NCBI GenBank assembly: GCA_964481205.1 | Contig: CAYZYE010000001.1 | Coordinates: forward strand, 16,552-80,551 | DNA: 64,000 bases | Direction of reading: 5' to 3' | Source of the DNA: an uncultured Anaerolineae bacterium | Lineage (GTDB): Bacteria > Chloroflexota > Anaerolineae > JAFGEY01 | In this document: positions 1-63,921 of the stretch, in pieces | Layout of the letters: every line of letters begins with the position of its first letter | How positions within the stretch are numbered: position 1 is the first letter of the stretch | Translations under genes and position numbers: made by a program | Notes under the pieces: model-generated | Seen by the model: only the letters and a program-made list of their open reading frames with translations | Told to the model about the DNA's origin: nothing | The model's database searches: none

Positions 1-1352
1 TCTGGTTCGACGACGCCGCCGAAAAAATGGGCGTTGACGTGATGCGCTGGATGTACTGCACACACAAACCAGAACAAGACCTGCGCTTTGGCTATCACGC
101 CGCCGACGAAACACGCCGCCGTTTTCTCATTCCGCTGTGGAACGTATACGCCTTTTTCGTCAACTATGCCCGCCTCGACCAATGGCAGCCCGACAAACTG
201 CCGCTGGCCGAACAATCGCTCTCGCTGCTCGACCGCTGGATGCTGGCCAAACTCAACCAGCTCATCGCCGACGTAACCGCCGAAATGGACGACTATGACG
301 TATTTGACGCCGCCAACCAGATCGAAGCCTTTATCGACCAAGTCAGCAACTGGTACGTGCGCCGCAGCCGGCGCCGCTTTTGGCGCAGCGCCGGCCAAGG
401 CGACGCCGACAAAAACGCCGCCTACAGCACACTGTACCAGGTATTGAACCAGTTGTGCGTGCTGATCGCGCCCTTTGCGCCCTTTGTCGTCGAAACAATG
501 TACCAAAACCTGGTCAAGAACGGCAATAGAAACCAGATTCCTGAATCACCAGAGAGCGTTCACCACCAGGCCTGGCCCGTCGCCGACCCGGCGCTGATCG
601 ACCAAGAACTGCTGGCCGATATGGACCTGGCAATCATGGTCGCCTCGCTGGGCCGTTCGGCGCGCAGTACGTCCAACATCAAACTGCGCCAACCGTTGGC
701 CCAAGCCATCGTCGTCGCCGACGCGCGCCAACAAGCGCGCCTGGAGCGCCTGTCCGACATTGTGCTCGACGAGTTGAACGTCAAAAAACTCGAATTTGCC
801 CGCCAGGCCGACGACCTGGTGCATTACGAGATCGGCCTCGATCCGCGCATCCTGGGCAAAAAGCATGGCCCGCTGTTCCCCAAACTGCGTCAGGCCGTCG
901 CCGCGCTCGACCCGCTGCCCCTGGCGCGCAAACTAGAGCGCGGCCAGGCGGTGACAATCATCGTCGGCGGCGAACCGGTCGAACTATTGCCCCAAGAAGC
1001 CCAGGTGCGTATGCGCGCCCAAGAGGGCCTGGCCGTTGCCGACGCCGGCGGCATAGTCGTCGGCATCGACACCGGATTGACGCCGCAACTGATTCGAGAA
1101 GGGCTGGCCCGCGACCTGGTACGCCGTATCCAGGACGCGCGCAAAAACGCCGGGTTCAAGATCGAAGACCGGATCGTCCTCACCTACCAAACTGGCGAAA
1201 CCCTGAGCGCCGTTTTCACGACACTGGGCGCGTACCTGGCCCAAGAAACACTGGCCGTGCAGATCATCGCCGGGCCGCCGGCAGAGCCGGGTTTCGTCGA
1301 TCAATTTGAACTGAACGGCGAACCGATCACGATAAGCATACATCAGGCGTAA
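1..1352 (+). CDS. ileS: isoleucine--tRNA ligase, C-terminal portion (5' end outside the window)
   Basis: Open frame runs from the window edge (frame of ORF 27..1352). Translation carries the class-I aaRS anticodon-binding/C-terminal region typical of IleRS (..NWYVRRSRRRFW..DADK.AAYSTLYQVL..). A strong intrinsic terminator follows. Confidence 0.8.
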   Translation, partial: WFDDAAEKMGVDVMRWMYCTHKPEQDLRFGYHAADETRRRFLIPLWNVYAFFVNYARLDQWQPDKLPLAEQSLSLLDRWMLAKLNQLIADVTAEMDDYDVFDAANQIEAFIDQVSNWYVRRSRRRFWRSAGQGDADKNAAYSTLYQVLNQLCVLIAPFAPFVVETMYQNLVKNGNRNQIPESPESVHHQAWPVADPALIDQELLADMDLAIMVASLGRSARSTSNIKLRQPLAQAIVVADARQQARLERLSDIVLDELNVKKLEFARQADDLVHYEIGLDPRILGKKHGPLFPKLRQAVAALDPLPLARKLERGQAVTIIVGGEPVELLPQEAQVRMRAQEGLAVADAGGIVVGIDTGLTPQLIREGLARDLVRRIQDARKNAGFKIEDRIVLTYQTGETLSAVFTTLGAYLAQETLAVQIIAGPPAEPGFVDQFELNGEPITISIHQA

Positions 1353-2242: not shown

Positions 2243-3184
2243 CTACTCCACCAGTTCGCGCCAGCGCCCCTCATCGAGCAGTTCCTTGAGGCTGACGGCC
2301 AGATCGCTCTCGCGGCGTCCCAGCATCACACTGGCCACAAGCAGCAAGCCCCCCAACCACTGCACCAGCATCAACCGCTCGCCAAGCCAGAAAAAAGCCA
2401 CCAGCAAAGCCACCAGCAACTCGGCCAGGCCAAGCAGCGAGGTCTGCGCGCCGCCCAGACTTTGCAACCCGGCGAACATTAGCAAACGCGCCAAAATCGT
2501 CGGAAAGAGCGTCAGGCCGAAGACGGCCAACCAGCCCTCGGCCGAAACCGGCGTCCAGGGCGCGCCGTTGAGCAAACGCGCGACGCTGACGACAACGGCC
2601 ATCGTCGTCAGTACATACAGCGTCACCGAGCGCGAGTCGACATCGGCCAGCGTCCACTGCCCCAGCACCAGGTGCCAGGCATACAGCGCGCCGGAGCTGA
2701 TCAACAACATCACCCCCAGCCAATCGACATCTTGGGCGCCGGTATAAGTCAGCGCCACCACGCCGACTAGCGCCAATCCCAGCCGGACAAGCGACATCGT
2801 CGAGATGTGATGTCCGGCGGCGATCAAAAAGATGAACACCCAGATGGGATAGAGCGTATACAACAACTGCGCCAGCGAAGCGTCGATGCGCCCCAGACCA
2901 GAATAATAGAGCAACGAGCCGAGGCCATTGGCGACCCCCATCCCGACACAACCCATCAAGTTTCGCCAGTCGATGGGAATCGCATCGCGCCAAAACAAGA
3001 GGTACACCAACCACAAAATGGTCGCCGCGCCCACCGTGCGCAACATCACCAGGGTAAAAGGCATCACCTGCGCCCGGTAGGCCAACTTGCCAAAAATAGG
3101 CGCCATCCCGAAAAAGATGGTCGAAGCCAGCGTGAGCAAAATACCCCGCACGCGCGTCTTTTTATCCAACACTTGGTCTTGCAT
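2243..3184 (-). CDS. EamA/DMT-family transporter (10 TM)
   Basis: Two EamA-like halves of 5 TM each. The start was moved from the ORF-track start to ATG at 3182-3184 (MQDQVLDKK..). It is convergent with the upstream plus-strand gene. Confidence 0.75.
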   Translation of the reverse strand: MQDQVLDKKTRVRGILLTLASTIFFGMAPIFGKLAYRAQVMPFTLVMLRTVGAATILWLVYLLFWRDAIPIDWRNLMGCVGMGVANGLGSLLYYSGLGRIDASLAQLLYTLYPIWVFIFLIAAGHHISTMSLVRLGLALVGVVALTYTGAQDVDWLGVMLLISSGALYAWHLVLGQWTLADVDSRSVTLYVLTTMAVVVSVARLLNGAPWTPVSAEGWLAVFGLTLFPTILARLLMFAGLQSLGGAQTSLLGLAELLVALLVAFFWLGERLMLVQWLGGLLLVASVMLGRRESDLAVSLKELLDEGRWRELVE

Positions 3185-3262
3185 CGTCAATACCCTCAAA
3201 TAAGAACGCCCACAAGAGGCTATGCCGCCAACCCCCCAACTCGTTTGAAACACACCCAAATA

Positions 3263-3290
3263 AAAACGGCCTCTGACAGGCCGCTTTTAT
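3263..3290 (-). terminator. Intrinsic terminator at the end of the sensor train (bidirectional-looking hairpin)
   Basis: cggcct-ctgac-aggccg hairpin flanked by T-runs on both strands (aaaaacggcctctgacaggccgcttttattt). It lies about 40 nt after the stop of the ThrC-REC gene on the minus strand. Confidence 0.6.
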
Positions 3291-3320
3291 TTGAGCAAAT
3301 GTCTTTCGATCCAATCCACA

Positions 3321-4988
3321 TTATCCCAAAATATCGTCGATCTCTTCCAAAATATCGGTGCTCAAAAACGTGCCCTTTTGCAACAGACGGCGCACGCGCC
3401 CATCCAACCGCTGCCGTTCCGTCGCCGTCAACTCTTGCGCCGTCACCACGATCACCGGAATATCGCGGAAACGCTCGTCGGCCTTGAGCGCGTCGATCAC
3501 GCCAAAGCCATCGACCTCCGGCATCATCAAATCCAACAAGATGAGATCGGGGCGATTTTGATGGATCATCTCTAGCCCTTCACGCCCATTGTGCGCCTCG
3601 TCGATCTGATACTCGCCCTGCGCCTGAAGCACGCGCCGCAGCAACCGCGCCGCGTCGAGATTATCCTCCAAAATCGCAATACGCCTCGTGCGCTGATCCA
3701 GGCGCTCCAACGAAGCCAGCAGTCCCTCCTCTTGCGCCAACGGCGCGCCGCCGCTCTCCTTGCCCGCCAACTCGAGATTGTGCTGCCAATCGTCGCCCAA
3801 CAAAAACTTTTCCACCGGAAAGGTATGCCCGGAACAATTGACGACGATCACATCATCGGGCTGAATCAATCCCTGCGCAGCCATCTTGAACAGACCGGCA
3901 AAAGCCATCGCCGCCGCCGGCTCCATCGAGATGCCATCCATCTTGGCCAAAACGTGCATCGCCCGGAAGGCCTCGCCGTCGGTGACTTTTTCAAACGCGC
4001 CGCCGTGCTCCATCACCACCTTGCGCAAGTATGAATACGCCGCCCCCGGCTTGCCGGTCGCCACCGTCGCGATCAACGTCTGCGGGTTGAGCACCGGCTC
4101 GGCTTCGGTCAACCCGGCGCGGAACGAATCGACGATCGGGGCGCACCCCGCCACCTGAATACTGGCCAACTTGGGACGCCTGTCGACCAACCCCATTTCC
4201 CTCATCTCGCCAAACGCTTTCCACACACCCACCGGGCCCATCGCGCCGCTGACGGCCTGAAAGTACCAATCGGGCGCGCGCCACGGCGTCTTGGCCGACG
4301 GCCCCAATATCCGGCCCAATTGTTCGGCCACCTCAAAACCCAGAGTCTTCATCGCCTCGCGCGCAGCGATGCTTTTCAAGCCGCGGTCATAAAACAAACC
4401 TTTGCTTTGCGCAAAATCGGCGGCCACAACCTTGGTCTGATCATAGGTGCCCGTCACCTTGATCACATCGGTGCCGTACAGCGCGATCTCGCGCATCTTT
4501 TCTGGGGGCACGCTGCTGGGCAAAAAAGCCCACAACTTGATCCCGGCATGCGTAGAATACGCCGAATACGAGATCGCGACATTGCCCGTCGAGGCCAAAA
4601 CGGCTTCTGTCACCCCATTTTCCCGCATCGCCGAAATAGCCAACGCCGCCTGTCGATCCTTGAACGACCCCGTAGGCCCCTGCCGTTCATCCTTGATATA
4701 CAAATGGCGCAGCCCCAACATCAACCCCACATTGGTCACCTGGTACAGCGGCGTCCCCCCCTCCCCCATCGTCACCCTTTTAGCAAGGTCGCGCAGCGGG
4801 AGCAACTCTTGGTAACGCCACATATCAAACGGACGCCTGGACAACTCGGCATCCCATGTCCAACGCACCCGGTCGTATGGATAACTCACCTCTAGCCAAT
4901 CATTCCCACAAGACGGGCATTTCTGACGCGCACGCAAATAAGGCGCTTTCCAATTACACTTGTTACATTGTAAGTATATCTCTTGCAC
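3321..4988 (-). CDS. Threonine-synthase-family PLP enzyme with N-terminal Zn-ribbon and C-terminal response-regulator receiver domain (ThrC-REC fusion)
   Basis: N-terminal CNKC..CPSC zinc ribbon. The core has GEGGTPL and GPTGSFKDRQAALAIS (PLP-lysine) threonine-synthase motifs. The C-terminal roughly 120 aa is a complete REC (ILEDN..LILLDLMMP..VIVVTA..LLQKG). Start chosen as GTG at 4986-4988, preceded by AGGGGGAAAT; the longer ORF-track start would overlap the upstream kinase by 124 nt. Confidence 0.8.
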   Translation of the reverse strand: MQEIYLQCNKCNWKAPYLRARQKCPSCGNDWLEVSYPYDRVRWTWDAELSRRPFDMWRYQELLPLRDLAKRVTMGEGGTPLYQVTNVGLMLGLRHLYIKDERQGPTGSFKDRQAALAISAMRENGVTEAVLASTGNVAISYSAYSTHAGIKLWAFLPSSVPPEKMREIALYGTDVIKVTGTYDQTKVVAADFAQSKGLFYDRGLKSIAAREAMKTLGFEVAEQLGRILGPSAKTPWRAPDWYFQAVSGAMGPVGVWKAFGEMREMGLVDRRPKLASIQVAGCAPIVDSFRAGLTEAEPVLNPQTLIATVATGKPGAAYSYLRKVVMEHGGAFEKVTDGEAFRAMHVLAKMDGISMEPAAAMAFAGLFKMAAQGLIQPDDVIVVNCSGHTFPVEKFLLGDDWQHNLELAGKESGGAPLAQEEGLLASLERLDQRTRRIAILEDNLDAARLLRRVLQAQGEYQIDEAHNGREGLEMIHQNRPDLILLDLMMPEVDGFGVIDALKADERFRDIPVIVVTAQELTATERQRLDGRVRRLLQKGTFLSTDILEEIDDILG

Positions 4989-4996
4989 ATTTCCCC

Positions 4997-7900
4997 CTAT
5001 AGAGCGCTTCGCGCCAGCCGATTCAATATCTCTAGCATTTGTTTTGCGACAACCGGCTTGGGCACAAAGGCCGCCGCGCCCATACTGATCGCTTTGCCCC
5101 CATCCATTCCCCGAGAACAAACGACAATTGGCGTCATCCGCGTATGCCGCGTCGATTTGAGCGTCTCCAACAACGCCCAGCCCTGCTCACCTCCCAACTG
5201 GGTATCCATCAAAATGACAAAGGGGTTCAGATAGCGCGACCAGCGCACCGCCTCCTGAGGATCGAACAAGGGCACCAGTTGATACCCCACACTGTCCAGG
5301 AAACGACGATACGCGGCCACATCCTCCGAACTGCGTTCGATCACCAGAATCATCTTTTTCGTCTTGTCAATGACCAGATCGGCCAGTTCGGGAATCTCGT
5401 CGGCCATTGGCCCGGCAATAGGCAAATAGAATGTGAATTTAGAGCCAACCCCCTCTTCACTCTCCGCCCAGATTCGACCGCCGTGCATCTCGACCAACGT
5501 GCGGCTGATCGGCATACCCAGACCAGTGCCCTCGGCCGCGCGCGTAGATGACGAGTCAAGCTGGCGGAATTTTTCAAACACCAGACCCATCTTTTCGGCC
5601 GGCATGCCAATCCCCGTATCCGCGATGCTCACGTAAACCAGGTCTTCTTCGCGCCACGTGCTGACCGTGATCGACCCTTCCTCGGTGAACTTGGCGGCGT
5701 TCGACATCAGGTTGCGAATCACCTGGCGAATACGGGTGCTGTCGGCGCGAATCAGCGGCATATCCGGCGCCACATTCAAAATCGGCTCGACCGGCTTTTC
5801 ACCAATCTGCACCGCCAGCGTACCGCGCACCTCCTTTTCGAGCAGCCTGGACATATCCACATCGCTTTCGAGCAACAGTTCCATCTTGCCGGCATCGATC
5901 TTGGATTGATCCAACACATCGTTGATCAAGCGCAACAAGTTTTGACCATTGTTGTAAATGGCCTCCAGGTCTGTTTTCTGCATCTCGTTCAACGGGCCGT
6001 CGATGCCCTTGAGCATCACCCGCGAAAAGCCAATGATCGAATTCAGCGGTGTGCGCAACTCGTGCGACATTGTGGCCAGAAACTCGGCGCGGAACTGGTC
6101 GATCTCGCGCAGCTGTTCGGCAACGCGCTCAATCTCGGCAGCGCGCTGTTGCAAAGACTCGAACAATTGCGCATTTTCGATCGCCGAAGACAGCTGCGAA
6201 GTCACCCCCTCAATGATCTCCAACTCTTCTTCGCTCCACTCGCGCTGCATCCCCAACTCTTGCACACCCAACATCCCAATGACCTGACCACGCCGGTCGA
6301 TGGGAGCGACAAACGCGGTTTCCGCGTCGCCGTCCCCTTCTTTGGCCCAGGCCAAAGGAGATTTTTCCGTGAGCACGCGCTCGGCCTCCGATGGAACAGC
6401 CTCCAGCGGCGGCACCCCCGGCTGCCGGAAAATGAAATCCCGCTCATCCTTGATCGCCAGATAATCTTCCCACGATTCTCGCAACAAATTTTGCTGCAAC
6501 GTAGTGATCTCGGCCAAACGCTCCTGCGCATCCTCGAACAAGCGTGCATTTTCGAGTGCCTGCCCCATTTGCTCGGCAATAGACTGCACGATCGCCACCG
6601 CGTCTTGCGACCATGTTTGCGCCACACCCGGATCGTGGACGCCCAATACCCCCAAAACATGACCGCCATAAGAAATAGGTACGGCGATCCTGTCCGGTTC
6701 CACCACCGGGCGGTCCGTCTCCAACACATTGGCAACCTGAGGAACAAGCCGGTGTCCCAGAGGTTGAATATCCCCGCCGCGCAGTTGATACCCCGCAGAA
6801 CGAAGCCTGGGGGCAAGCCGGTCCCATGACTCGCCCACATACCGCTTGCGCAGCTGCTCCAAATCCTCCAAAGCAAAACGCGCCTCGCTCATCGAGCGAA
6901 TGTTGGCAATACCGCTTGCCGTTTGATCGGCGATTGTGGTCAAAATAGCCACATCCTGATCGTCCAGCGTCACGCGGTCCGGGCTTTGCAAACTCAACAC
7001 ACCAACAAGCTCACCTCGCGCCGACAGCGGCACCGCGGCCTCAAAATACACATCGGCGATGTGATAGCTGGCCTGCGCCGCCTGCCCGGACACCTCCTGG
7101 ACAAAGCGCGATTGCGCATGGACGACGCACCAACCGGCCACCGTTCGATCGTTGACCGGCGCCCGCTCCCCCGATGGTATCTCGCTGCTGCTCGAAGCAG
7201 CAACCGTCATCCATGCGCTATCCTCGTCCACCAGAAACAGCAGGGTATACATGTGAAACCCTTGCCTGACCAGTTGGACAACCTGTTCTGCCAGCTCGGG
7301 AATACGTTCCGCCGATGTCACAACCTGGGAAACCTGGGACGAGACGCGCAACTGAACCGCCCGCTGCACCAACTCGGTGTTCACCTGCTCTAGCCTTTGA
7401 TTGAGCGTATCTTGCTGCTGAAGACTTTTCTGCAACTCGACACGGCTTTGCACCAGCTGCTCGGTTCGTTCTTGAGCGCGCTGGTAACTGCCAAGCGCCC
7501 ACTTGACCGTGTCAAAAAGAGGCCGAAAAGTGATCCAGGCCAAACCAACACCCAGCCCGGAAAAGAGCAGCGCGCCATAAGCCAAAGGCGGCGCGTTGCC
7601 AAGCAAAGCAGGGAACACAACCGTCGCCAGAAACTGGATACCAAACAAAACGACCGTACTCCATGGCGAGAGGAGCAACCCGGAGATCGAAATCAACAAC
7701 GTAAAGGCAAATGGCAGGCTTTGCCAGATCATCGCCTCCCCAGTTTTGTCGCCGAACCGCGGTGGAAACACAAGCGGCACACACAACGCCAGCGCATTGA
7801 CCAGGATAAACGCCCACGCCGCCCGGTCGAACGCATTTCGTTGTTGAAATTGTTGGGTCAAGATCGACGCGGCAACGAGAACAGCAAAGAACAGATACCA

Positions 7901-8041
7901 AATTGTGCCTGACTCTGGCGCGCCGAGCAAAACCATCAAGATAATAAAGGCAAAACCCAACCCTATTTTCCACAAAAGGCTCAACAGAGAATGCCGAAAG
8001 TCGAGCGGCCCCTCTTGTTCAACCCATTGAGATGCACCCAT
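4997..8041 (-). CDS. Hybrid sensor histidine kinase: polytopic membrane N-terminus, coiled coil, three GAF-type domains, HisKA, HATPase_c and C-terminal REC
   Basis: ATG with GGAGG at -6. H-box MSHELRTPLNSIIGFS, N-box NLMSNAAKFTEEG, G1 DTGIGM, G2 GTGLGM, then a REC (ILVIE..ILMDTQL..VVCS..FVPKP). It is the only intact kinase in the window and the last sensor of the train. Confidence 0.9.
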   Translation of the reverse strand: MGASQWVEQEGPLDFRHSLLSLLWKIGLGFAFIILMVLLGAPESGTIWYLFFAVLVAASILTQQFQQRNAFDRAAWAFILVNALALCVPLVFPPRFGDKTGEAMIWQSLPFAFTLLISISGLLLSPWSTVVLFGIQFLATVVFPALLGNAPPLAYGALLFSGLGVGLAWITFRPLFDTVKWALGSYQRAQERTEQLVQSRVELQKSLQQQDTLNQRLEQVNTELVQRAVQLRVSSQVSQVVTSAERIPELAEQVVQLVRQGFHMYTLLFLVDEDSAWMTVAASSSSEIPSGERAPVNDRTVAGWCVVHAQSRFVQEVSGQAAQASYHIADVYFEAAVPLSARGELVGVLSLQSPDRVTLDDQDVAILTTIADQTASGIANIRSMSEARFALEDLEQLRKRYVGESWDRLAPRLRSAGYQLRGGDIQPLGHRLVPQVANVLETDRPVVEPDRIAVPISYGGHVLGVLGVHDPGVAQTWSQDAVAIVQSIAEQMGQALENARLFEDAQERLAEITTLQQNLLRESWEDYLAIKDERDFIFRQPGVPPLEAVPSEAERVLTEKSPLAWAKEGDGDAETAFVAPIDRRGQVIGMLGVQELGMQREWSEEELEIIEGVTSQLSSAIENAQLFESLQQRAAEIERVAEQLREIDQFRAEFLATMSHELRTPLNSIIGFSRVMLKGIDGPLNEMQKTDLEAIYNNGQNLLRLINDVLDQSKIDAGKMELLLESDVDMSRLLEKEVRGTLAVQIGEKPVEPILNVAPDMPLIRADSTRIRQVIRNLMSNAAKFTEEGSITVSTWREEDLVYVSIADTGIGMPAEKMGLVFEKFRQLDSSSTRAAEGTGLGMPISRTLVEMHGGRIWAESEEGVGSKFTFYLPIAGPMADEIPELADLVIDKTKKMILVIERSSEDVAAYRRFLDSVGYQLVPLFDPQEAVRWSRYLNPFVILMDTQLGGEQGWALLETLKSTRHTRMTPIVVCSRGMDGGKAISMGAAAFVPKPVVAKQMLEILNRLARSAL

Positions 8042-8076: not shown

Positions 8077-10278
8077 CTACTCTTGCGATGAAAGCCCCCT
8101 GGTATTCAACTGCACAAAAGCAGCGGGCACATTCAAAACCCGCGCCAGATCGGCGATCGTCGTCTGCATCAACGCATCCAAACTGACGCGAGCCTGCATA
8201 TTGGCGCCAATCTCGCGGATCTGGCGTTCTCTAATCTCGCGCGACTGTGTTTCCTGGTAAAAACGCGCCGCTTCCAAAGCATACGACAACTGTTCGGTCA
8301 CATCTTGCAGCCAGGCCACCTCTTGCGGCGTCCATTCGCCGTCTGCCGCTGGCTTGACCGTATCCAACACGCCAATGATCTCTTCACCAATGCGAATGGG
8401 GATCGCCAACGGCGCCCCTTGCGGATCACGATCTTGGGCCTCGGGGGCCAGGATCGTCTGCCCCTCCTGAATCGCCCGCGCCATCTCGGGGCGCGACACC
8501 GGAGGCAATTTGGTCACACCGCGCGCATCACTGCGAAAAGCCATCCCGCCGCCGCGCAACAACTCTAGCCAGGCCTGACGGCTCATCCCGCTATAGGCAC
8601 GCTCTGCGGAGGCCAACGCCTCTTGAACCTGGGCAAACAAGCGCGCATTATCCAACGCGCTTGCCACCTGATCGGCCATCGTCTGCAACGCAACCAGTGC
8701 GTTTTGGTCAAACGCATCCGGCTGGTCGCTCTGCACGGTGATCGCGCCCACAACATGCCCGTGGGCGCGCATCGGCAGCGCCGCCTCAGATTGCGTGTCC
8801 GGCAGTTCATCGGCGACCAGACGCACCTGGTCCTGGCTCACATCAGAGGCAACGCGAATCTGATCGTTGGCAATGCACCAACCCACCATCCCCTCGCCAA
8901 CCCGAATGCGATGCCCGCGAGCAACCATACGGCGTCCATATTCGCCGCTGCCGGCCCGCAACACCGCCCACTCGCCGCTCTCATCGACTTGAAACAAACC
9001 AACATAATACAAGCCAAACCGATCTTGAATGACCTGGGCCACCTGGCGAATGAGTTGATCGACATCCAAAATGGACGAAAGCGTTCGCCCCACGTCGGCC
9101 GTCGCTTGCAAGTACACCGTCTGCTGCTCCAGAGCGCGGGTCCGTTCGCCGACACGCCGTTCCAAACTGCCCACCAGCTCGCGCAACTGCGCGGTCATAC
9201 TATTGAACGCCCGCGCCAATGCGCCAATCTCGTCTTCCCGCTCGACCGTAGCCACCAGGTCGCGTTCGCCGGCAGCAATTCGACGCGCCACCTGGGCCAA
9301 ATTGACAATGGGCACCGAAATCTGCCGCGTCATGGCAAACGAAGCCCATACCGCACTCGTCGTCATCAGCAACGCCGTAACGCCGGTCGCCGCCAACATC
9401 ATGTACATCGCTTTGAAAGCAACAACTTGGGGAACTTCTACCAACAACACAAGCTGGATTTTCGGCAACCATTGATAAGCGCCAATGACCGGCACCCCCA
9501 CATGATTGGCATACAAGGCCGAACCGCTCGCCCCCTTCAACGCTTCGATCGCGCCGGGTGTACGGGCAATCATTTGCGGCCGATCGATGCCGGTACCGGC
9601 CACAATCACATAATCGGAATCAATGAGGTAATTCTTTGTATTCTCGTCTAAAAAAGTGCGCACGTCCATCATTGCCTGCAAAACGTCTATACTGACCCGG
9701 CCGCAAAAAATCCCCGACGTCTCTTGCTGCTCATTCTGGACAGGCTGCACCACAACAATATCGCCATCGCCCAACAGACGAACCGAGTTGGCCGACAACC
9801 CGCTACGGAAAAACTCGGCGTTCCGGTAAAGCCGTCCCCGATCAATGTCTCCGGTAGAAAAAACGACACGCCCCTCGTCGTCGATCAAAAAAAACTCGGC
9901 AAACGGTTGGCCGGGGCCAAGATACGGCCCCAGTTTGAACGCCAAATCCTCGATAACCCCTTGCGCAGCGCCCGTTTCCAAAGCAGAGTTGAAAATCAAC
10001 TGCGCATATATCGACACTTGTTTCTGGACAAATATCTCGTCCAGGCTACTTTGCAAGCCATCGACCCAGGCGTCAATCTGCATCGCCCTGACATTGCCCG
10101 CTGACTCTAGCGTATTGATCGCCCGGCTGCGCCCACTGCGAACACTGAACACGATGGCAATGATCGAAACAGCAACCATCGGCAGCACGCCAACCAACAC
10201 AAAAGCCACAAACAGACGCACGCGAATCGCACGAAACGGGCGAACCTTGAAACTGATATCCTGACTTGTCTCGGTCAT
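8077..10278 (-). CDS. Cache-HAMP-GAF-GAF sensor protein, no output domain
   Basis: Start moved to ATG at 10276-10278 (MTETSQD), which has GGGAG upstream. TM, roughly 280-aa periplasmic Cache-like domain, TM, HAMP (..ARAFNSMTAQLRELV..), tandem GAF (GLYYVGLFQVDESGEWAVLRAGSGEYG..), C-terminal cap ..LDALMQTTIADLARVL... Confidence 0.85.
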   Translation of the reverse strand: MTETSQDISFKVRPFRAIRVRLFVAFVLVGVLPMVAVSIIAIVFSVRSGRSRAINTLESAGNVRAMQIDAWVDGLQSSLDEIFVQKQVSIYAQLIFNSALETGAAQGVIEDLAFKLGPYLGPGQPFAEFFLIDDEGRVVFSTGDIDRGRLYRNAEFFRSGLSANSVRLLGDGDIVVVQPVQNEQQETSGIFCGRVSIDVLQAMMDVRTFLDENTKNYLIDSDYVIVAGTGIDRPQMIARTPGAIEALKGASGSALYANHVGVPVIGAYQWLPKIQLVLLVEVPQVVAFKAMYMMLAATGVTALLMTTSAVWASFAMTRQISVPIVNLAQVARRIAAGERDLVATVEREDEIGALARAFNSMTAQLRELVGSLERRVGERTRALEQQTVYLQATADVGRTLSSILDVDQLIRQVAQVIQDRFGLYYVGLFQVDESGEWAVLRAGSGEYGRRMVARGHRIRVGEGMVGWCIANDQIRVASDVSQDQVRLVADELPDTQSEAALPMRAHGHVVGAITVQSDQPDAFDQNALVALQTMADQVASALDNARLFAQVQEALASAERAYSGMSRQAWLELLRGGGMAFRSDARGVTKLPPVSRPEMARAIQEGQTILAPEAQDRDPQGAPLAIPIRIGEEIIGVLDTVKPAADGEWTPQEVAWLQDVTEQLSYALEAARFYQETQSREIRERQIREIGANMQARVSLDALMQTTIADLARVLNVPAAFVQLNTRGLSSQE

Positions 10279-10318
10279 ACTCACTCCCAACCGTGCCGGT
10301 ACCGCACCCAATCCAGCA

Positions 10319-12046
10319 TCACTCGGCGGCGTTCTCGGCCTGGATCTCGGCCGAATTTCGGAGTTGCACAACTACCTCCGGCAAGCCAAGCGTCTGGCGC
10401 ACCTGCTCCACCGCCGTCCGGAGCACGGTCTCGATGTCTAGCGTCTGGCGGATACGCGAAGTCACCTTACCCAACATCTGCTGGTGCGCGGCGCGAAGCT
10501 GCGTCTCCTGATACAACCGCGCGCTGTCCAGCGTCCCGCTCAACTGTGCGACCAGCGATTGCATAAACTCGACTTCGTCCTCGGTCCAATCCCCCATTGA
10601 TTCATCCTTGCACAGGCGAACGACCCCTTCCACATTGTCGCGAATGTCGATGGGAATCAACAGCGTTGTCCCGTCGGCCCGAACCAGTTGATTCTGTCGA
10701 TATGCGGCGACCATATCCGGCAGCCACCGGTGGTCAGGCTCGGTTACACCTTGCGCATCACACAAATAGCCAATGCCACCGGGCGTGCCAATGATCTGAC
10801 GCCAGGCATCGCGGCTGATCTCGCCATACGCGACACGCTGCGCCTCCAAAGTCTCCTGGATCTGGTCAAACAGAGCGACATTCTCGATTGCAATAGCCAA
10901 CTGATCGGCCAACACCTGCAAAATAGACACATCGTCCCGCGTAAAAGCGTTGCTTTGCACACTCTGCACATCGAGCACGCCCAAAACACGTTCACCGACC
11001 TCGAGCGGCAAGGCAACTTCCGAGCGTGTCTTTGGCAAGAGTGGATTGGCAAAGTGATGCGCGTCCTTGCCCACATCAAGTGCAACGCGCGACTGGCCCG
11101 TTTTGGCCACATCGCCGACAATGCCCTGCTCACCCACCCTCAAGCGGTGCCCTTGCGAAAGCATCAACTTACCGCCCTCGCTGTTACTCGCCCGCAGCAC
11201 CGCATATTGAACCGGCGTCTCCCGGCCAACCTCATCCAACATAAATATGCCCACGTGGTACACATCCAGATATTGACTGATCAAATCAGCGGCCTGCGCC
11301 AACAGCTGCTCCTGATCTCGAATCATGGCCGCGGCGCGCCCGACCTGGACAACGGCCTCCAATCGCTGCGCGCGGTTCGCCAACGACGCTCGCACGACCT
11401 CAAGCTCACGGTTGACCTGAGTCTGATCGTACTCGTTACGACGCGCCTTGGCCAGCGCCGCGTTCAGGTTGTGCAACGCAGAACGCAACAACAGATCGGC
11501 CAACAACACAAGAATGCCGATAAAGATCAAATCCGAGACGGTCACGGGTGTGCCCGGATACTGGACCAAACCAAACACCTGGATCACATATCCGATCCCC
11601 AGGCAAAGCAAAGTCAAAATCGTAGTCAAACGCATCGCCCGTCTGCCCAACAGCAAACCAGACAACACAACAATGATCAAATACTCGGCTGGACCCTGAT
11701 CGGCATTGACGCCGGCAAAAAACAAAACCCAAACCGTCATCACCAGCCATAACAACGAGACCAGAATACCGCCGGCAGCCGTCACGTGACCGCGTTGGGC
11801 AACCAGGATCAACCCCAAACTGATCAGGCATACCACCAGCCCAATCAAGATCACAAAAACCTCTTGCAAATTTCGCGGAAGACCATTCACAATGAGCAGC
11901 AAAACGACCATAGTCAGAGTTGCCGCAAACAGCGTGAGCAGCACCGTATACAACAAACGAACAGTCTGGCTTTTGTCCTCGTCCTGAAAAACCGGAGGCG
12001 TAACGAACCGCTTGATTCGATTCAATATCCTGGTCAATATCCTCAT
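10319..12046 (-). CDS. Polytopic membrane (about 6 TM) GAF-GAF sensor protein, no output domain
   Basis: ATG start. N-terminal hydrophobic helices, then a GAF (VYHVGIFMLDEVG..AVLRASNSEGG..GHRLRVGEQG..), then a second GAF-like C-terminal cap (..LDIETVLRTAVEQVRQTLGLPEVVVQL). Confidence 0.85.
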   Translation of the reverse strand: MRILTRILNRIKRFVTPPVFQDEDKSQTVRLLYTVLLTLFAATLTMVVLLLIVNGLPRNLQEVFVILIGLVVCLISLGLILVAQRGHVTAAGGILVSLLWLVMTVWVLFFAGVNADQGPAEYLIIVVLSGLLLGRRAMRLTTILTLLCLGIGYVIQVFGLVQYPGTPVTVSDLIFIGILVLLADLLLRSALHNLNAALAKARRNEYDQTQVNRELEVVRASLANRAQRLEAVVQVGRAAAMIRDQEQLLAQAADLISQYLDVYHVGIFMLDEVGRETPVQYAVLRASNSEGGKLMLSQGHRLRVGEQGIVGDVAKTGQSRVALDVGKDAHHFANPLLPKTRSEVALPLEVGERVLGVLDVQSVQSNAFTRDDVSILQVLADQLAIAIENVALFDQIQETLEAQRVAYGEISRDAWRQIIGTPGGIGYLCDAQGVTEPDHRWLPDMVAAYRQNQLVRADGTTLLIPIDIRDNVEGVVRLCKDESMGDWTEDEVEFMQSLVAQLSGTLDSARLYQETQLRAAHQQMLGKVTSRIRQTLDIETVLRTAVEQVRQTLGLPEVVVQLRNSAEIQAENAAE

Positions 12047-12052
12047 CGAATG

Positions 12053-15000
12053 CTATTCCTCATCACTCACCGGGGCGGAACCCATCCTGATCTCAACCTC
12101 TTTGAGTCCTAATGCCGCACGCATCTCGCGGACCGAATTTCTCAACACCGTATGTATATCGAGCGATTCACCCATACGCGCGGCAACCTGGCTCAACAAC
12201 CGGTCACGAACGGCGCGGCGCCGCGTGTCCTGGAGCAAACGCGCACTCTCCATCGACAAAGCCAGACGATTTGCCACCTGCTCGATCAGCGAAACGGTTT
12301 CCGCCGGCACAGCCCCCCCTTGAAACCGCAAATTGAGCACACCCACAACCTGATCCCGCAACTTGACCGGAACAGCCACCGCCCCCGACGCATCGGGCTG
12401 TTCTGTACCTGTACCGACCACCGGCTCACCCAACTCTAGTGCGCGGGCCGCCTCTGCCGAACGTTCAGGTGCAGGTTCGACGCCCAATCGACGATAACGA
12501 TAACCCAACGGCTGCGCGCCATGCGCCAATTTTTGCCACGCCTCTCGTGTATATTGCGCCGTCGAGGCCTGCAACTCTCGAACAGTCTGCTGCATCTGCT
12601 CGAACAAACGCACGTTTTGAATCGCCACGGCCAACTGATCGGCCACAATACTCAACGCCGCAACGTCCTCCTCGTCAAAACCGGCCACCCTGGCACTTTG
12701 CATATCCAACACACCGATCACCTGGCCGCCAACCTGAAGCGGCAGCACCACTTCGGATCTCGTATCGGGCAACAGCGGGTTGAGCACATAAGTGTCATCT
12801 CCGGCGACATCAAACACGGTGCGAAACTCGCCCGTCATCGCCACATGACCAATAATCCCCTCTTGCCCCACCCGGCGTCGATGTCCCTGCGCCAACAAAG
12901 CGCCGCCCACCTCACCGGTGGCCGCGGCAAGAACTGCGTACTCGCCTTGATCGTCGACCAGAAACACACCCACGTAATCGAACCCAAAACGATCATGCAC
13001 CAAATCAACCACACGATTCAACAGATCGCCCAACTCGCGGACCGAAGTCGTATCGCGCGCAACCTCAGACGCGGTTTGCAGCTGCACTGCCCGGCGGGCC
13101 ATCGCCTCGGCATACTGCTCCAAATCAGCTTCAACCTGCTTGATCTTGGTAACGTCACGGGTCAAACCCACAAGCCCGGTCACCCGTCCTGCCGCGTCGT
13201 GCAAAGGCACTTTGGTCGTAGAACCCCATTGATGCTCTCCGGTCGCTTGATCGATCACCTCTTCTTCATAATCGATCATTGACTCGTCGCGCGCCATCAA
13301 CGCCTGTTCAACCTCGTAATACTGGCTGGCAAACTCGCTGGGGAAAAAATCAAAATCGGTCTTGCCCAGCAACTCCTCCTGAGACCTGGCTCCCAACACA
13401 CGAATATGTGCCGCATTGTTGAGCACGAACCGGCTTTGGCGATCCTTGATATAAACATAATCGGGCAAGTTGTCAATCAATGTGCGCAGCAGCGCACGCT
13501 CTTGCACCAACTCGGTCTCGGCCTGACGACGCTGCTCGATCAAAAACGCGCCTTGCAGCGCATTTACGATCTCTTGCTGCACCGAACTATACAAGTTACC
13601 ATCTGCCGGGCCGATCTCGAAAACGGCAAAACCCAACGGCTGCTCTTGAGCATCCAGTGGAAAAACACCCACCTGATACGACCGCCCGTTGGGCCACACA
13701 TCGTGCGGAAGCAGCTGCCTGGTTGGATAATGCTGCTCTTGGGCAGAAAGCTCGATCCGCCTCGAATCGCGCCAGGCCAGCACAAGCCGAACCCCATCCA
13801 AAGGCCGCTCAGGATCGTCGTACAAAGCCAGATACCCGCTACGGATACCCATACCGGGCAGCTCCTGAGCAATGATCCGCGTCACATCCGCGACGCTTTG
13901 CCCAAGCATCATCCGCATCCCCAATGCACGCATCTGATCGCTCTGACGAACCCGCTCCAGCCGAAAAGCGATCTCGCTCCTTTGCACCTGATGCCCCACC
14001 AACGTCCGCGCCTGCTGCCACATCACCTCGGCCCAAGCAAGTTGATCGCTGTCCAACAGAGGACGCAAATACTCGCGCAGCGCCGACAATACCAGATGCC
14101 AGCGGCTGACCTGCCCGCGATCCAACGACACCTGGCGCATTACACTTTCAAATGTCGATAGAAAAACATCGCCCGGAGCCTCCAAACCGGCCCAAAAAGC
14201 CGACACCAATTGCTCGACGCTCCGCGCCAACAGATCAGGCGACATATGCGCGGCAATGCCTGCCAAAACGCGCGTCAGCGCCGGCGCAACCTGCGCGCGC
14301 GTGACCTCGACATCCCCCAAAAAACCGGCCGTCGAAATCTCATCGGGCCAACAGCCACATGAGCGGCGGATGACCATCTCGGCCTGTACATCCACTAAAT
14401 CCGGTGCCGGTTCGCCCCGAACCAAGGCCAACACCGTTTGCAATGCCCTGCGTCCAGATTCATAAAACGGCTTGCGCATCGTGGTCACCGCCGGCACAAC
14501 CGTCTCGGCACTGACCACATCGTTGAACCCAACCACCGACACCTCGCCCGGCACCGCCACGCCGCGCTCTTGCAGCACGACCAGCGCGCCAACCGCATAT
14601 TGCACCTCGGTGACAACCAGGGCATCAAAATCCACGCCCGGACGCAGATGACGCTCATCCAGCAACAACCGCATCGCCGCCGCGCCATCCTCGTCCCCCC
14701 ACCCCACCGGCGGGCTGGACAACCGCTCATCCACCACAAGGCCATGCGCTTCCAGCGTATCGCTCCAGGCGCGGACACGCTCTTGCGTCTCGAAATGCCC
14801 GTCCGGGCCGCGAATCAAGGCGATCCGACGCCGCTGGTGCGTCTCGATCACGTGATCGATCATCTGTCGCATTGCTACACGAGTATCCGTAAACACACAC
14901 GGAATTCCCGCCATAGGCGTTTCAACGTTCACGATCGGCAACCCGCGATAACGATCCAGAAACTCGCGCGTCTCGGCCTCATCCAGGTTCTCCAACACCC

Positions 15001-15262
15001 CAGCACCGTGACTACCCCATACGATCAACCCATCGAGCGTGTCTACGCTGGCCAGATCGAACACCACATTCGACGCAAACGCCCCTGTCCCCGGCCTGGC
15101 CTGAACGCCGCCGACAAAACAGACCAGATTGACCCCTTGCGCCCGCGCATAGTCCACCGCACCAAGCCACATCAACTGATAATGGGACAACCCACTGATC
15201 AACATCCCAATCGTCAGACGTTTTGTTCTATCCTTTGTCATTCCAGGATTATTCGTGTTCAT
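12053..15262 (-). CDS. Cytoplasmic PBP1 (LacI/sugar-binding-like) - PAS - GAF - GAF sensor protein, no output domain
   Basis: ATG start overlapping the upstream stop (ATGA). The N-terminal roughly 300 aa are a periplasmic-binding-protein type 1 fold (RLTIGMLISGL..VVGFNDV..) with no signal peptide. Then a PAS (LRTLIDNLPDYVYIKD..), tandem GAF, and cap ..LDIHTVLRNSVREMRAALGLKEVEIRMG. Confidence 0.85.
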   Translation of the reverse strand: MNTNNPGMTKDRTKRLTIGMLISGLSHYQLMWLGAVDYARAQGVNLVCFVGGVQARPGTGAFASNVVFDLASVDTLDGLIVWGSHGAGVLENLDEAETREFLDRYRGLPIVNVETPMAGIPCVFTDTRVAMRQMIDHVIETHQRRRIALIRGPDGHFETQERVRAWSDTLEAHGLVVDERLSSPPVGWGDEDGAAAMRLLLDERHLRPGVDFDALVVTEVQYAVGALVVLQERGVAVPGEVSVVGFNDVVSAETVVPAVTTMRKPFYESGRRALQTVLALVRGEPAPDLVDVQAEMVIRRSCGCWPDEISTAGFLGDVEVTRAQVAPALTRVLAGIAAHMSPDLLARSVEQLVSAFWAGLEAPGDVFLSTFESVMRQVSLDRGQVSRWHLVLSALREYLRPLLDSDQLAWAEVMWQQARTLVGHQVQRSEIAFRLERVRQSDQMRALGMRMMLGQSVADVTRIIAQELPGMGIRSGYLALYDDPERPLDGVRLVLAWRDSRRIELSAQEQHYPTRQLLPHDVWPNGRSYQVGVFPLDAQEQPLGFAVFEIGPADGNLYSSVQQEIVNALQGAFLIEQRRQAETELVQERALLRTLIDNLPDYVYIKDRQSRFVLNNAAHIRVLGARSQEELLGKTDFDFFPSEFASQYYEVEQALMARDESMIDYEEEVIDQATGEHQWGSTTKVPLHDAAGRVTGLVGLTRDVTKIKQVEADLEQYAEAMARRAVQLQTASEVARDTTSVRELGDLLNRVVDLVHDRFGFDYVGVFLVDDQGEYAVLAAATGEVGGALLAQGHRRRVGQEGIIGHVAMTGEFRTVFDVAGDDTYVLNPLLPDTRSEVVLPLQVGGQVIGVLDMQSARVAGFDEEDVAALSIVADQLAVAIQNVRLFEQMQQTVRELQASTAQYTREAWQKLAHGAQPLGYRYRRLGVEPAPERSAEAARALELGEPVVGTGTEQPDASGAVAVPVKLRDQVVGVLNLRFQGGAVPAETVSLIEQVANRLALSMESARLLQDTRRRAVRDRLLSQVAARMGESLDIHTVLRNSVREMRAALGLKEVEIRMGSAPVSDEE

Positions 15263-17547
15263 ATATTTTCTCTCGAGTCGGGCGATGCAATTTCAGGCAT
15301 ATCGATATGCACCGACACCTCGGTCACATTGGGCAACTGCCCAAGTTCGCGCACCGCGGTACGCAGCAACGTGTCCAGATCCAACGTGCGTGCAAACTCG
15401 GCCGAAATCTGGCCGACCGCCTGCTCGCGCGCAGCCTGCTGCTGGGTACTCTCGTACAATTGGGCGCTGTCCAACGCCTGCCCCAGGCGATCGATCAACA
15501 CCTCGAACAATTCAAGCTCGGCGGCCGACCAGCCCCCGGCACCCTCGCGCTTGCGGGCGTCGATCACACCGATCACCTGATCGCGGATGCGAATCGGCAC
15601 GGCTGCCGCCCCGCCGTCCGTCTCATCCTTGACCGTCTGATTCCGTCGCACGGCCAACGCCATCTCGGGACGCCACACCCCTTCGGCAGAGACAAAACGA
15701 CCGTTGCCATAACGATAGCCCCGCCCTAATTCGCGCTCCTGAGCGAGTTTGGCCCACACCTCGCGCCCGTACTCGCCAAAGGCCCGCTGCACGGCCTCCA
15801 ACCGATCCCGCGACTCTTGGAAAAGCCAGATATTGCTGATCGCCATCGCCATCTGGTTCGCCAAAGTCTGTAAAATGACAACCTCTTCTCGAGTAAACGC
15901 CTCCCTGCGCCGAGCGTGCAGGTCCAACACGCCGAGCACCTGACCGCGCGCACGCAGTGGCAAAGCCAACTCGGAACGCATATCGACCACATGTGGATGA
16001 CGAACATATGCCGGTTCGAGATCGGCATCGGCCACAACCAACGCATCCTGTCCAGAGGCAACCACCGACACCAGACCGGCGCCGTCCAATGGCAGGCGGT
16101 ACCCCTGCGCCAGCACACGCCGACTGCCACGGCCGGCCGCGGCCTGTAATTCAACCCACTCGCCCGACAAGTCGAGCATAAAGACGGCCGCATAATCGAC
16201 CTCAAACTGTTCACACATCCACCCGGCAACACGCGACAAAAGTTCCTGGGCATCCAAAATCGACGCCATCGCGCTGCCCACCTCGGTCGCAGCCTGCAAC
16301 ATCGCCGCATGCTGCCGCTCAGCCCGGACCTGGCTTTGCAAACTCGTAGAAGTCTGACGCAATGCCTGGCGCGTGCGGTCGAGCACATTTGCCAACGCGC
16401 CAATCTCGTCGGTAGACGAGACCGTGATCGCAGTATCGAGATCGCCCTGCCCCAAATTGTGCGCCAGCCGGCCGAGTTGCCGGATCGGGCGCACCAGCCC
16501 CAGGCTGCTCCACAGCCCCAGGCCGATCACGGCACTGATGCTCAACGCCAAAATCAACGCCGAAACCCACTCGTACTGCAAAAGCGGAGCCAACACCTCG
16601 TCTGCCGAACGAAACGAGACGATCGCCCACCGGTAACGATCCGTGCCCTTGGGCGCCAAAGAGGTAAAAGTGGCAAAATACGGCTCTAGACGCACCACAC
16701 CGTGCTCGTTCTTTTCATGCACCTTGGAAAACAGCATTGAGGCGACATCGGGATACTCTTGCCCAATAGTGATCCCCGTCTCCAGATCACGCCCCCACCG
16801 CTTTTCCGGTGACTGTGAATGGTACAAATAATACCCATCCTCGTCAATCATTACCACCAGCTCAGACAACTGGCTCTTGGCGCCCAGCGCGTCCAAAAAG
16901 TACGAGGCGAACACATTGACGATCACAATGCCGGACGGACGATTGTCGAACCACACCGGCGTCGCATACCGGATCACCGGTTTAAAAGGCCGCTCGATCT
17001 CGCCATGCTCCACGTTCAGGTCAAGCGGAGAAACCCAAACCTCGCCGCGCCGAGTCGCCATCGTCTCGGTAAAATAATACCGCCCCGCTTTGTCTTGCAG
17101 CTGGTCCTGGGGAACGGCAAACACTTGCTTGCCATCCGAATCGATGCGCACCACCTCCATCCCCGTCGCATCGAGATAACGCACCTGATAGTACACCCCC
17201 CGCACCTGCGACAGATTCAAAAATTCGTGCGCCACCGTGCGCAGCGCGTCAGCCTCGCCGGCCGCATCGCCGTCGGCCTGAGCCTGCAACAGCCGCGCCA
17301 ACCCATCCGCCCGGCTCAAAAACAGCACATCCTCGCGCACCCCAGACAAAAAGCGATCCACATCCGAAGCCAACGTATGGACATAATGCTCTTGCTCGCG
17401 CAGCACAAACCCGTAAACCATCTTTTTTGTTGTTTCAATACTATAGAGCATCGCCCCAAACAAGGGAAGCAATGAGACAGCCATGATCCCCAACAGCAAC
17501 TTGTTGCGAATACTAGAGGTAAAGAAGCGACGCACCTTTTGCCACAT
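15259..17547 (-). CDS. Cache-HAMP-GAF-GAF sensor protein, no output domain
   Basis: ATG with GGAGG upstream. TM, Cache-like ectodomain, TM, HAMP (..LANVLDRTRQALRQ..), tandem GAF, cap ..LDLDTLLRTAVRELGQLPNVTEVSVHI. Confidence 0.85.
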   Translation of the reverse strand: MWQKVRRFFTSSIRNKLLLGIMAVSLLPLFGAMLYSIETTKKMVYGFVLREQEHYVHTLASDVDRFLSGVREDVLFLSRADGLARLLQAQADGDAAGEADALRTVAHEFLNLSQVRGVYYQVRYLDATGMEVVRIDSDGKQVFAVPQDQLQDKAGRYYFTETMATRRGEVWVSPLDLNVEHGEIERPFKPVIRYATPVWFDNRPSGIVIVNVFASYFLDALGAKSQLSELVVMIDEDGYYLYHSQSPEKRWGRDLETGITIGQEYPDVASMLFSKVHEKNEHGVVRLEPYFATFTSLAPKGTDRYRWAIVSFRSADEVLAPLLQYEWVSALILALSISAVIGLGLWSSLGLVRPIRQLGRLAHNLGQGDLDTAITVSSTDEIGALANVLDRTRQALRQTSTSLQSQVRAERQHAAMLQAATEVGSAMASILDAQELLSRVAGWMCEQFEVDYAAVFMLDLSGEWVELQAAAGRGSRRVLAQGYRLPLDGAGLVSVVASGQDALVVADADLEPAYVRHPHVVDMRSELALPLRARGQVLGVLDLHARRREAFTREEVVILQTLANQMAMAISNIWLFQESRDRLEAVQRAFGEYGREVWAKLAQERELGRGYRYGNGRFVSAEGVWRPEMALAVRRNQTVKDETDGGAAAVPIRIRDQVIGVIDARKREGAGGWSAAELELFEVLIDRLGQALDSAQLYESTQQQAAREQAVGQISAEFARTLDLDTLLRTAVRELGQLPNVTEVSVHIDMPEIASPDSRENI

Positions 17548-17549
17548 GC

Positions 17550-19310: not shown

Positions 19311-19323
19311 CTTTGTACCCCGC

Positions 19324-19992: not shown

Positions 19993-20076
19993 CAATTTCC
20001 CCCTCTTGAAGAACCAAATCTCTACGGCAACATTCCTCAATCCACCACCCGCCCCAGCAATCTGGGCCGCGCACAA

Positions 20077-22792: not shown

Positions 22793-22819
22793 TGATCTAC
22801 CACCCACCGCCGGCCCAAA

Positions 22820-26812: not shown

Positions 26813-26813
26813 G

Positions 26814-33938: not shown

Positions 33939-33941
33939 TCC

Positions 33942-38070: not shown

Positions 38071-38106
38071 TGCCGTTCCCTTTTTAGACAACCCTGGAAA
38101 AACGAG

Positions 38107-63844: not shown

Positions 63845-63921
63845 AACACAACTCCCTATTACAGAACGACAAAAGCCCCAGTAAGGCAACTCGGGAGAAA
63901 TAATTGTCCCAGATTAGCAAA

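Follow-up and report, generated by a model that had tools for sequence, protein, structure and literature searches.

A Chloroflexota family of proteins joining a threonine-synthase-like domain to a receiver domain, a candidate response regulator with a pyridoxal-phosphate enzyme as output

What does a two-component system control when the gene next to its histidine kinase encodes a metabolic enzyme? The question is raised by a 64-kb window (the whole stretch analyzed, 64,000 nucleotides of contig CAYZYE010000001.1, assembly GCA_964481205.1) from an uncultured Anaerolineae bacterium, in which one gene on the minus strand joins a zinc ribbon, a domain resembling threonine synthase (ThrC) and dependent on pyridoxal phosphate (PLP), and a C-terminal receiver (REC) domain. 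A preliminary description of the locus had read the protein as a complete ThrC-type enzyme placed under the control of the only histidine kinase at hand. On balance, and with moderate confidence, we regard the fusion as a response regulator whose output is a neofunctionalized ThrC-like PLP enzyme. This is the simplest account of the data, because the catalytic and phospho-acceptor residues are invariant, a kinase gene is an almost obligatory neighbor, and the locus encodes no transcriptional or second-messenger output.

The reading frame of the gene is unbroken, with 555 codons and a stop (556 codons), its GTG start matches the N-termini of homologues, and a protein identical to it is present in the public collection (P0001). 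A domain scan with Pfam placed PALP (PF00291) at residues 72-387 (E 1.1e-59; 202.6 bits against a cut-off of 35 bits) and Response_reg (PF00072) at residues 437-538 (E 9.8e-19; 68 bits against a cut-off of 30.2), both well above threshold, which bears out the earlier reading of zinc ribbon, PLP domain and C-terminal REC as parts of one protein. The motifs GEGGTPL and GPTGSFKDRQAALAIS were seen in the PLP domain, and the REC pocket is complete (E441, D442, D486, T516, and K538). In an AlphaFold2 (AF2) model built on a family alignment of 56 sequences, the mean predicted local distance difference test (pLDDT) score was 81.6 and the PLP domain was modeled with confidence; the zinc ribbon appeared as 3 short strands (residues 5-8, 14-16, and 32-35; pLDDT 85-92) and the receiver as a (beta-alpha)5 pattern across residues 435-554. 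The linker at residues 398-433 had a pLDDT below 50, consistent with disorder, and a helix was predicted at residues 423-433.

The fusion is the rule among its relatives. In a search of 5.8 billion proteins, the best 120 protein clusters (64-100% identity, approximately 555 amino acids) all carried both PF00291 and PF00072; their named members come from metagenome-assembled genomes (MAGs) of Anaerolineae or Chloroflexota and are labelled "pyridoxal-phosphate dependent enzyme" or "threonine synthase" (threonine synthase at JGI). HMMER against 1.84 billion representatives clustered at 50% identity added 6 more divergent full-length fusions (P0121-P0126; 43-54% identity), 2 of which, P0121 and P0122, have a second REC. 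When GTDB species were scanned with one genome each, at least 584 stretches encoding a relative were returned. We analyzed the best 80 loci, from which the per-residue and neighbor counts below are taken; all 80 encode the full-length fusion and come from Chloroflexota MAGs that bear the labels Anaerolineae, Anaerolineales, Thermoflexia or Caldilineae.

Residues expected to matter for function are retained across these genomes. The zinc-ribbon cysteines C8, C11, C24, and C27 are kept in 79 of the 80 and the Schiff-base lysine K110 in every one, and the family shows no variation in the STGN loop, the Gly-rich PLP-phosphate loop or S386. In the REC pocket, position 441 is Glu in 76 genomes and Asp in 3, D442 is kept in 79, D486 in 78 and K538 in 78, and position 516 is Thr in 72 and Ser in 6, so that the intact Asp pocket noted earlier is a property of the family. 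Median identity to the query was highest in the PLP domain (67%), lower in the REC (59%) and lowest in the linker (45%), an order that fits the expectation for a working enzyme. Within the linker, the terminal helix EEGLLASLExLD (residues 420-431) stands out, with E420, E421, G422, L424, S426, L427, E428, L430, and D431 invariant or at least 90% conserved. We also considered that the fusion might have arisen from faulty assembly or a frameshift error, or that the gene might be a pseudogene in decay. The continuous frame, the identical protein, the 120 clusters and the 80 of 80 assemblies with conserved functional residues rule this out, leaving it a negligible probability, and the earlier judgment that no frameshift separates the two domains held.

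Is the PLP domain a threonine synthase? Its top PDB matches, in sequence and in fold, are threonine synthases (2ZSJ, 1UIM/1V7C, 2D1F, and 6CGQ/6NMX), followed by the cysteate synthase 9K3C; Foldseek gave E 1e-24 and template-modeling (TM) scores to the target of 0.80-0.84 against the threonine synthases. These matches favor a rival explanation in which the protein is a genuine threonine synthase that converts O-phosphohomoserine to threonine, as a housekeeping or conditional isozyme, under two-component control. The same explanation draws support from the best NCBIfam match (NF006050, a model of zinc-ribbon threonine synthases), from the JGI annotation, from the retained catalytic lysine, STGN loop and PLP-binding elements, and from the closest unfused relative, P0127, which lies among housekeeping genes.

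The curated models speak against it. The PLP domain fails both TIGR00260 (145.6 against a cut-off of 167.1) and NF006050 (267 against 303), while both thresholds are cleared by P0213 and P0254, 2 zinc-ribbon controls that bear the canonical signature (336-337 and 305-320). Among the nearest unfused relatives, P0134, P0136, P0139, and P0153 also fail both models, and P0133 passes TIGR00260 only. The cysteate synthase model TIGR03844 is missed by a wide interval (110.1 bits against 324.9).

The active-site motifs were compared using a HMMER alignment to T. thermophilus ThrC, which supplied the numbering, and a MAFFT alignment of 68 PLP domains. The fused family keeps K61 (equivalent to K110), the S84-T85-G86-N87 loop and the E162/K165/T166 motif of the Thermus enzyme. 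In contrast, STGNT has become STGNV (T88 replaced by V137), N154-S155-x-N157-P158-x-R160 has become D-R-G-x-[RK]-S-x-x-A-[RK], and V-G-N188-A-G-N191 has become V-S-G-G-x-G-P, the replacements being fixed in 70-80 of the 80 genomes. STGNT, NSxNPxR and GNAGN are common to all the canonical ThrCs that we compared and absent from the fused family; of the canonical residues surrounding the phosphate site, T88, N154, S155, N157, P158, N188, and N191 are all replaced. In T. thermophilus ThrC, the residues T88, N154, S155, R160, and N188 reportedly bind the substrate phosphate; they align with V137, R202, G203, A209 (with Arg or Lys at 210), and G248 of the fusion. The remodeled loop has conserved basic residues of its own (R202, R/K205, and R/K210), and their conservation suggests an anionic ligand. 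The distal group of the substrate is probably anionic and bound in another way than O-phosphohomoserine is in ThrC.

Overall similarity points in the same direction. The fused family is 31-34% identical to the ThrCs of Thermus, Aquifex and Bacillus, whereas these enzymes, although from different phyla, are 56-61% identical to one another and 48-53% identical to canonical zinc-ribbon ThrCs; together with a small number of unfused relatives, the fused proteins make up a separate group, with 35-56% identity among its members. Also against a genuine threonine synthase are the confinement of the family to one phylum, the setting of its genes in signaling operons and the absence of hom and thrB genes, neither of which was found in the 64-kb window or conserved across the 80 loci. 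A search for a separate, canonical thrC by tblastn, with 3 canonical ThrCs over approximately 1.3 Mb of related loci and the window, returned the fusion genes only, at less than 38% identity. The genomic contexts of the unfused relative P0136 and of the controls P0254 and P0213 are limited to contigs of 1.5-2.7 kb.

Together, these sequence comparisons indicate that the PLP domain belongs to a branch of its own within the zinc-ribbon threonine-synthase superfamily and is not a canonical ThrC, and we consider a genuine threonine synthase rather unlikely. The description of the domain as complete and ThrC-type consequently does not hold in a functional sense. The phospho-homoserine-type chemistry proposed with it stands as only one possibility, because the curated cut-offs are failed and the canonical motifs are missing.

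The limits of the label extend to other proteins. P0156 passes NF006050 (360 bits) yet lacks several canonical ThrC motif residues (P0156 and P0164 were contrasted with P0213 and P0254), and the full canonical signature was present in only 2 of about 65 of the nearest zinc-ribbon representatives at 50% identity. Many database "threonine synthases" of the zinc-ribbon type may accordingly not be ThrC.

A response regulator needs a phosphodonor, and the presumed one is the hybrid kinase encoded immediately upstream (Table 1). Its H box (SHELRTPL, SHELRTPLNSIIGF), N, G1, and G2 boxes are all intact. We examined kinase adjacency in the 61 of the 80 loci that have at least 1.5 kb on both sides, classifying open reading frames (ORFs) by phmmer and all-against-all clustering. 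A kinase gene on the same strand directly adjoins the fusion in 59 of these 61 loci; 50 loci have one upstream and 37 have one downstream, with 28 loci counted in both groups. The search for further fusions and their contexts thus yielded a family with near-constant kinase adjacency, and by this adjacency the upstream kinase is a candidate for the cognate partner named in the preliminary description, which would pass phosphate to the REC of the fusion. The association extends to the divergent P0121 (49% identity), whose start overlaps the end of a gene for a GAF/PAS kinase of 2753 amino acids. In the kinase of our window, the internal REC (4997..5320, minus strand) has Glu-Arg in place of the acidic pair and may be crippled in this genome; the lack of the second acidic residue favors the REC of the fusion as the acceptor here.

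The preliminary description had called this kinase the only one present, which is correct only for competent kinases. HisKA and HATPase_c occur together only in this protein among all large minus-strand ORFs of the window (Pfam). A kinase-core hidden Markov model (HMM) made from 118 related kinases matched 1 further window protein, the HAMP-GAF protein encoded at 61029..63353 (minus strand), which contains a full-length but degenerate homologue of the kinase core (82 bits). Its H box has Arg in place of the phospho-acceptor His (SRELATFL; SRELATFLNNIIGF against SHELRTPLNSIIGF in the intact kinase) and Pfam detected no HATPase_c in it, so it is likely a pseudokinase. Just upstream of this gene, at 63419..63889 (minus strand), lies one for a stand-alone REC.

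The downstream kinases of the relatives have a different form. In the 37 loci that have one (for example, L014-L020), it is a REC-HisKA-HATPase protein of approximately 430 amino acids, and its gene often overlaps or abuts the 3' end of the fusion; the gene is missing in the window and in its closest relatives, where the EamA gene comes directly next. Since this second kinase directly follows the fusion in so many relatives, the phosphate route may be more complex than a single transfer. Kinases on both sides, the additional RECs (in P0121 and P0122, and as a stand-alone REC after the fusion in locus L089) and the lack of a detected Hpt domain are typical of branched or sink networks, and they lend some weight to a second rival, in which the PLP domain is mainly a ligand-binding sensor; gated by a metabolite, the fusion would act as a phosphate sink or connector and tune the signaling between the kinases on either side, instead of being a regulated enzyme. 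A REC at the C-terminus is what relay components typically have, and P0219, in which a ThrC-like domain is fused to PadR and the PLP lysine is Leu, shows that the ThrC-like fold can be recruited as a sensor. The invariance of the Schiff-base lysine and the PLP-contact motifs in 80 of 80 genomes, in what is the most conserved part of the protein, points instead to catalysis, and the window encodes no alternative effector response regulator. We regard the sink or sensor role as unlikely.

Table 1. Coordinates of the fusion gene, its domains and its neighbors within the 64-kb window.
Feature	Coordinates	Strand	Description
PLP-REC fusion gene, whole	3321..4988	-	Zinc ribbon, ThrC-like PLP domain, linker and C-terminal REC; 555 amino acids; GTG start, TAA stop
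N-terminal zinc ribbon	4884..4976	-	Residues ~5-35; CxxC...CxxC (C8, C11, C24, C27)
Fold-type II PLP domain	3828..4775	-	Residues 72-387; Schiff-base Lys110 codon AAG at 4659-4661
Interdomain linker	3690..3797	-	Residues 398-433, ~35 amino acids; ends in the conserved amphipathic helix 420-431
C-terminal receiver domain	3324..3689	-	Residues 434-555; phospho-acceptor Asp486 codon GAT at 3531-3533
Hybrid histidine kinase, presumed phosphodonor	4997..8041	-	GAFx3-HisKA-HATPase_c-REC (Pfam)
Kinase-fusion spacer	4989..4996	-	8 nt, GGGGAAAT, within the Shine-Dalgarno-like run AGGGGGAA; read from the sequence
Intrinsic-terminator-like hairpin	~3254..3296	-	19-bp stem flanked by A-tract and U-tract; core also listed on the plus strand
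EamA/DMT-family transporter (carboxylate/amino acid/amine type)	2243..3184	-	Pfam EamA 3e-26; same strand as the fusion, past the terminator
Upstream co-directional train	8077..43939	-	15 genes, gaps of at most 35 nt or overlaps; all but 2 encode a sensor domain and GAF

The signals flanking the fusion are those of a terminal gene pair. The stop codon of the kinase (TAG, 4999-4997) is followed by 8 nt and then by the GTG of the fusion (4988), which corrects the 5-nt spacing given earlier. Past the fusion, a hairpin lies 30 nt beyond the TAA stop; its stability (dG -30.3 kcal/mol; z -5.6) was equaled by 0 of 200 shuffled sequences, in agreement with the intrinsic terminator that had been proposed, and with both an A-tract and a U-tract it is potentially bidirectional. 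In this genome, then, the kinase and the fusion do form the last cistron pair before the terminator.

Beyond the hairpin, the transporter gene scores 81.7 bits with TIGR00950, below the cut-off. Of 56 loci, 35 have an EamA gene within 3.5 kb downstream of the fusion, usually on the other strand and thus convergent with it. When the ORFs of the 80 loci were clustered, kinases and EamA were the only conserved neighbors and no metabolic enzyme was among them. The conserved module is [GAF kinase]-[PLP-REC]-([REC-kinase])-[EamA].

On the other side, the kinase and the fusion close a run of 17 co-directional genes from 43939 to 3321 (approximately 40 kb), with looser members continuing to 63889 and the end of the window. 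The sensor modules of the train are dCache, PAS, MASE11 or periplasmic-binding-protein (PBP) domains, often with HAMP, joined to GAF; neither Pfam nor the kinase-core HMM detected a transmitter, kinase, cyclase, DNA-binding or other output domain in the sensor-GAF proteins of the train. Trains of this kind are common upstream of the fusion. Among the 37 related loci whose upstream sequence extends for 9 kb or more, 29 have GAF-only ORFs ahead of it, and the sensor-GAF layout recurs in L001, L003, L005, L008, and L010. We found no paper on GAF trains in Anaerolineae in a full-text literature search.

Several other genes of the window were noted. Within the train are a ParA/MinD-like ATPase (22013..22807, minus strand; AAA_31, 1e-45) and a DUF6989 protein (19324..20076, minus strand). 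By analogy with ParA-like proteins that position chemotaxis arrays, the embedded ATPase might, speculatively, hint at a positioned signaling assembly. The gene at 51881..53413 (minus strand), which heads the closely spaced section of the train, encodes 510 amino acids with an alpha-alpha toroid segment resembling squalene-hopene cyclases and prenyltransferases (SQHop_cyclase_C, 2.9e-15) and overlaps the next GAF gene by 4 nt. The window opens inside the 3' part of an isoleucyl-tRNA synthetase gene (27..1352, plus strand; Anticodon_1 and DUF5915), and ileS is also a neighbor in L005, a relative with 83% identity.

How might such a module work? We infer the phosphotransfer, the allosteric control, the catalytic activity, the substrate and the link to the transporter, and the mechanism could run as follows. 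The GAF-rich kinase would autophosphorylate on signals collected by the upstream sensor-GAF proteins, and in many relatives a second, downstream REC-kinase may also contribute. The phosphoryl group would arrive at Asp486 of the C-terminal receiver. The phosphorylated REC might then, through the flexible linker of approximately 35 residues and its conserved helix, alter its docking to the PLP domain or REC-REC dimerization, and the active site of the PLP domain, presumably a dimer, would open or close in response. As an outcome, a beta/gamma-elimination or replacement reaction on an amino-acid substrate would be switched on or off, and the EamA-type neighbor may transport the product or the substrate across the membrane.

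Several observations tell against this interpretation. In 51 of 55 relatives the upstream hybrid kinase has an intact REC of its own (with a D/E-D pair), and the Pfam hits in the window and in 4 related contexts included no Hpt domain; because of both, direct transfer from His to Asp486 would not be the sole route. The REC of the fusion is C-terminal and sits on a disordered linker, and the AF2 output gives no confident interdomain geometry, so the model does not point to any allosteric mechanism. In the remodeled loop, the basic residues R202, R/K205, and R/K210 could make an alternative phosphate site and bind a phosphate ester, in which case ThrC-like chemistry on O-phosphohomoserine would be possible, a point that also counts in favor of a genuine threonine synthase. 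Finally, the EamA gene is present in approximately 62% of loci and is mostly convergent, so its conservation might be residual synteny.

A bolder extension of the response-regulator reading, which we put forward as doubtful, is that the fusion acts as a phosphorylation-gated synthase of a non-proteinogenic amino-acid-type molecule that EamA exports and that serves filamentous Anaerolineae as an intercellular signal or effector, with the train of 40-60 kb funneling many signals through one kinase. The Cache/PAS/MASE11/PBP-GAF train would in that case be a multi-input assembly, possibly positioned by ParA. If true, this would be a signaling architecture with a metabolic endpoint in place of a transcriptional or second-messenger one.

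The less ambitious reading, a response regulator with a PLP enzyme as output, would have consequences of its own. If it is true, an abundant and almost uncultured bacterial class switches a PLP enzyme directly by two-component phosphorylation, and amino-acid chemistry joins the short list of response-regulator outputs (DNA binding, cyclic di-GMP turnover, methylesterase and a few others). The fusion also offers an experimental handle on the output-less GAF sensor trains, a highly unusual arrangement, because it is a soluble enzyme whose activity should be assayable. The fused family is large, sharply defined by its motifs and labelled "threonine synthase" in databases; its status as a separate subfamily, if shown, would keep threonine biosynthesis from being mis-annotated when metabolic models are built from Chloroflexota MAGs.

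How does the fusion compare with known systems? The preliminary description had called a metabolic output unusual, in place of DNA binding or cyclic di-GMP turnover. The 64-kb window indeed encodes no DNA-binding or cyclic di-GMP output, but REC domains attached to standard metabolic enzymes are a recognized class (Galperin et al. 2018, PMC5847659), and for this reason the kind is already known and only the output domain is new. A full-text literature search and the archaeal census contained no ThrC/PALP-REC fusion and no fold-type II PLP or ThrC-like REC output.

Among enzymatic response regulators, CheB, PleD/WspR and the RpfG-type regulators resemble the fusion in carrying a REC with an intact pocket on an enzyme, in having their gene beside that of a histidine kinase and in the post-translational control of catalysis that is proposed for it; unlike them, the fusion has a fold-type II PLP enzyme as its output. 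In CheB and PleD the REC is N-terminal. A C-terminal REC behind a long linker, as in the fusion, is atypical for enzymatic response regulators.

On the enzyme side, class-I ThrCs (2ZSJ of Aquifex, 1UIM/1V7C of Thermus, 2D1F of M. tuberculosis, and 6CGQ/6NMX of B. subtilis) share with the fusion the fold-type II PLP fold, the SFKDR Schiff-base lysine, the STGN loop and the E-x-x-K-T motif, and the NF006050 branch of ThrC shares the N-terminal zinc ribbon as well. They differ in that NSxNPxRxEGQKT of class-I ThrC reads DRGx[RK]SxxA[RK]ExMKT in the fusion, which also has a C-terminal REC and lies in a signaling operon instead of an amino-acid biosynthesis operon. Cysteate synthase (TIGR03844; 9K3C, CapA2), a ThrC-derived O-phosphoserine enzyme of the same superfamily, provides a precedent for neofunctionalization of the ThrC scaffold; it is a good structural match (root-mean-square deviation of 3.2 Å over 425 columns) at approximately 21% identity and, unlike the fusion, has no REC.

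The coupling of a small-molecule enzyme to signaling that we propose has parallels in CqsA/LqsA, PLP-dependent synthases encoded in two-component clusters (PMC3376566), and in FilI, a fusion of a kinase with an acyl-homoserine lactone synthase (PMC3991700). These are resemblances and not homologies, since fold and chemistry differ from those of the fusion and the synthases are not fused to a REC. Plant threonine synthase (2C2B, among the fold matches) is closer in structure and is an example of a ThrC fold under allosteric control by way of an added region. It is activated by S-adenosylmethionine. There the effector is a small molecule bound by an N-terminal extension and the canonical ThrC motifs are kept, whereas the fusion has a receiver domain instead. 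Comparable appendages occur in other proteins that we retrieved: the zinc-ribbon ThrC-like proteins P0188, P0207, P0210, P0226, and P0262 (approximately 620 amino acids) are fused to a LeuA allosteric/dimerization domain, and P0219 (491 amino acids) carries the DNA-binding domain of PadR. Judging from these architectures, the ThrC-like scaffold seems to have been recruited repeatedly into regulatory fusions.

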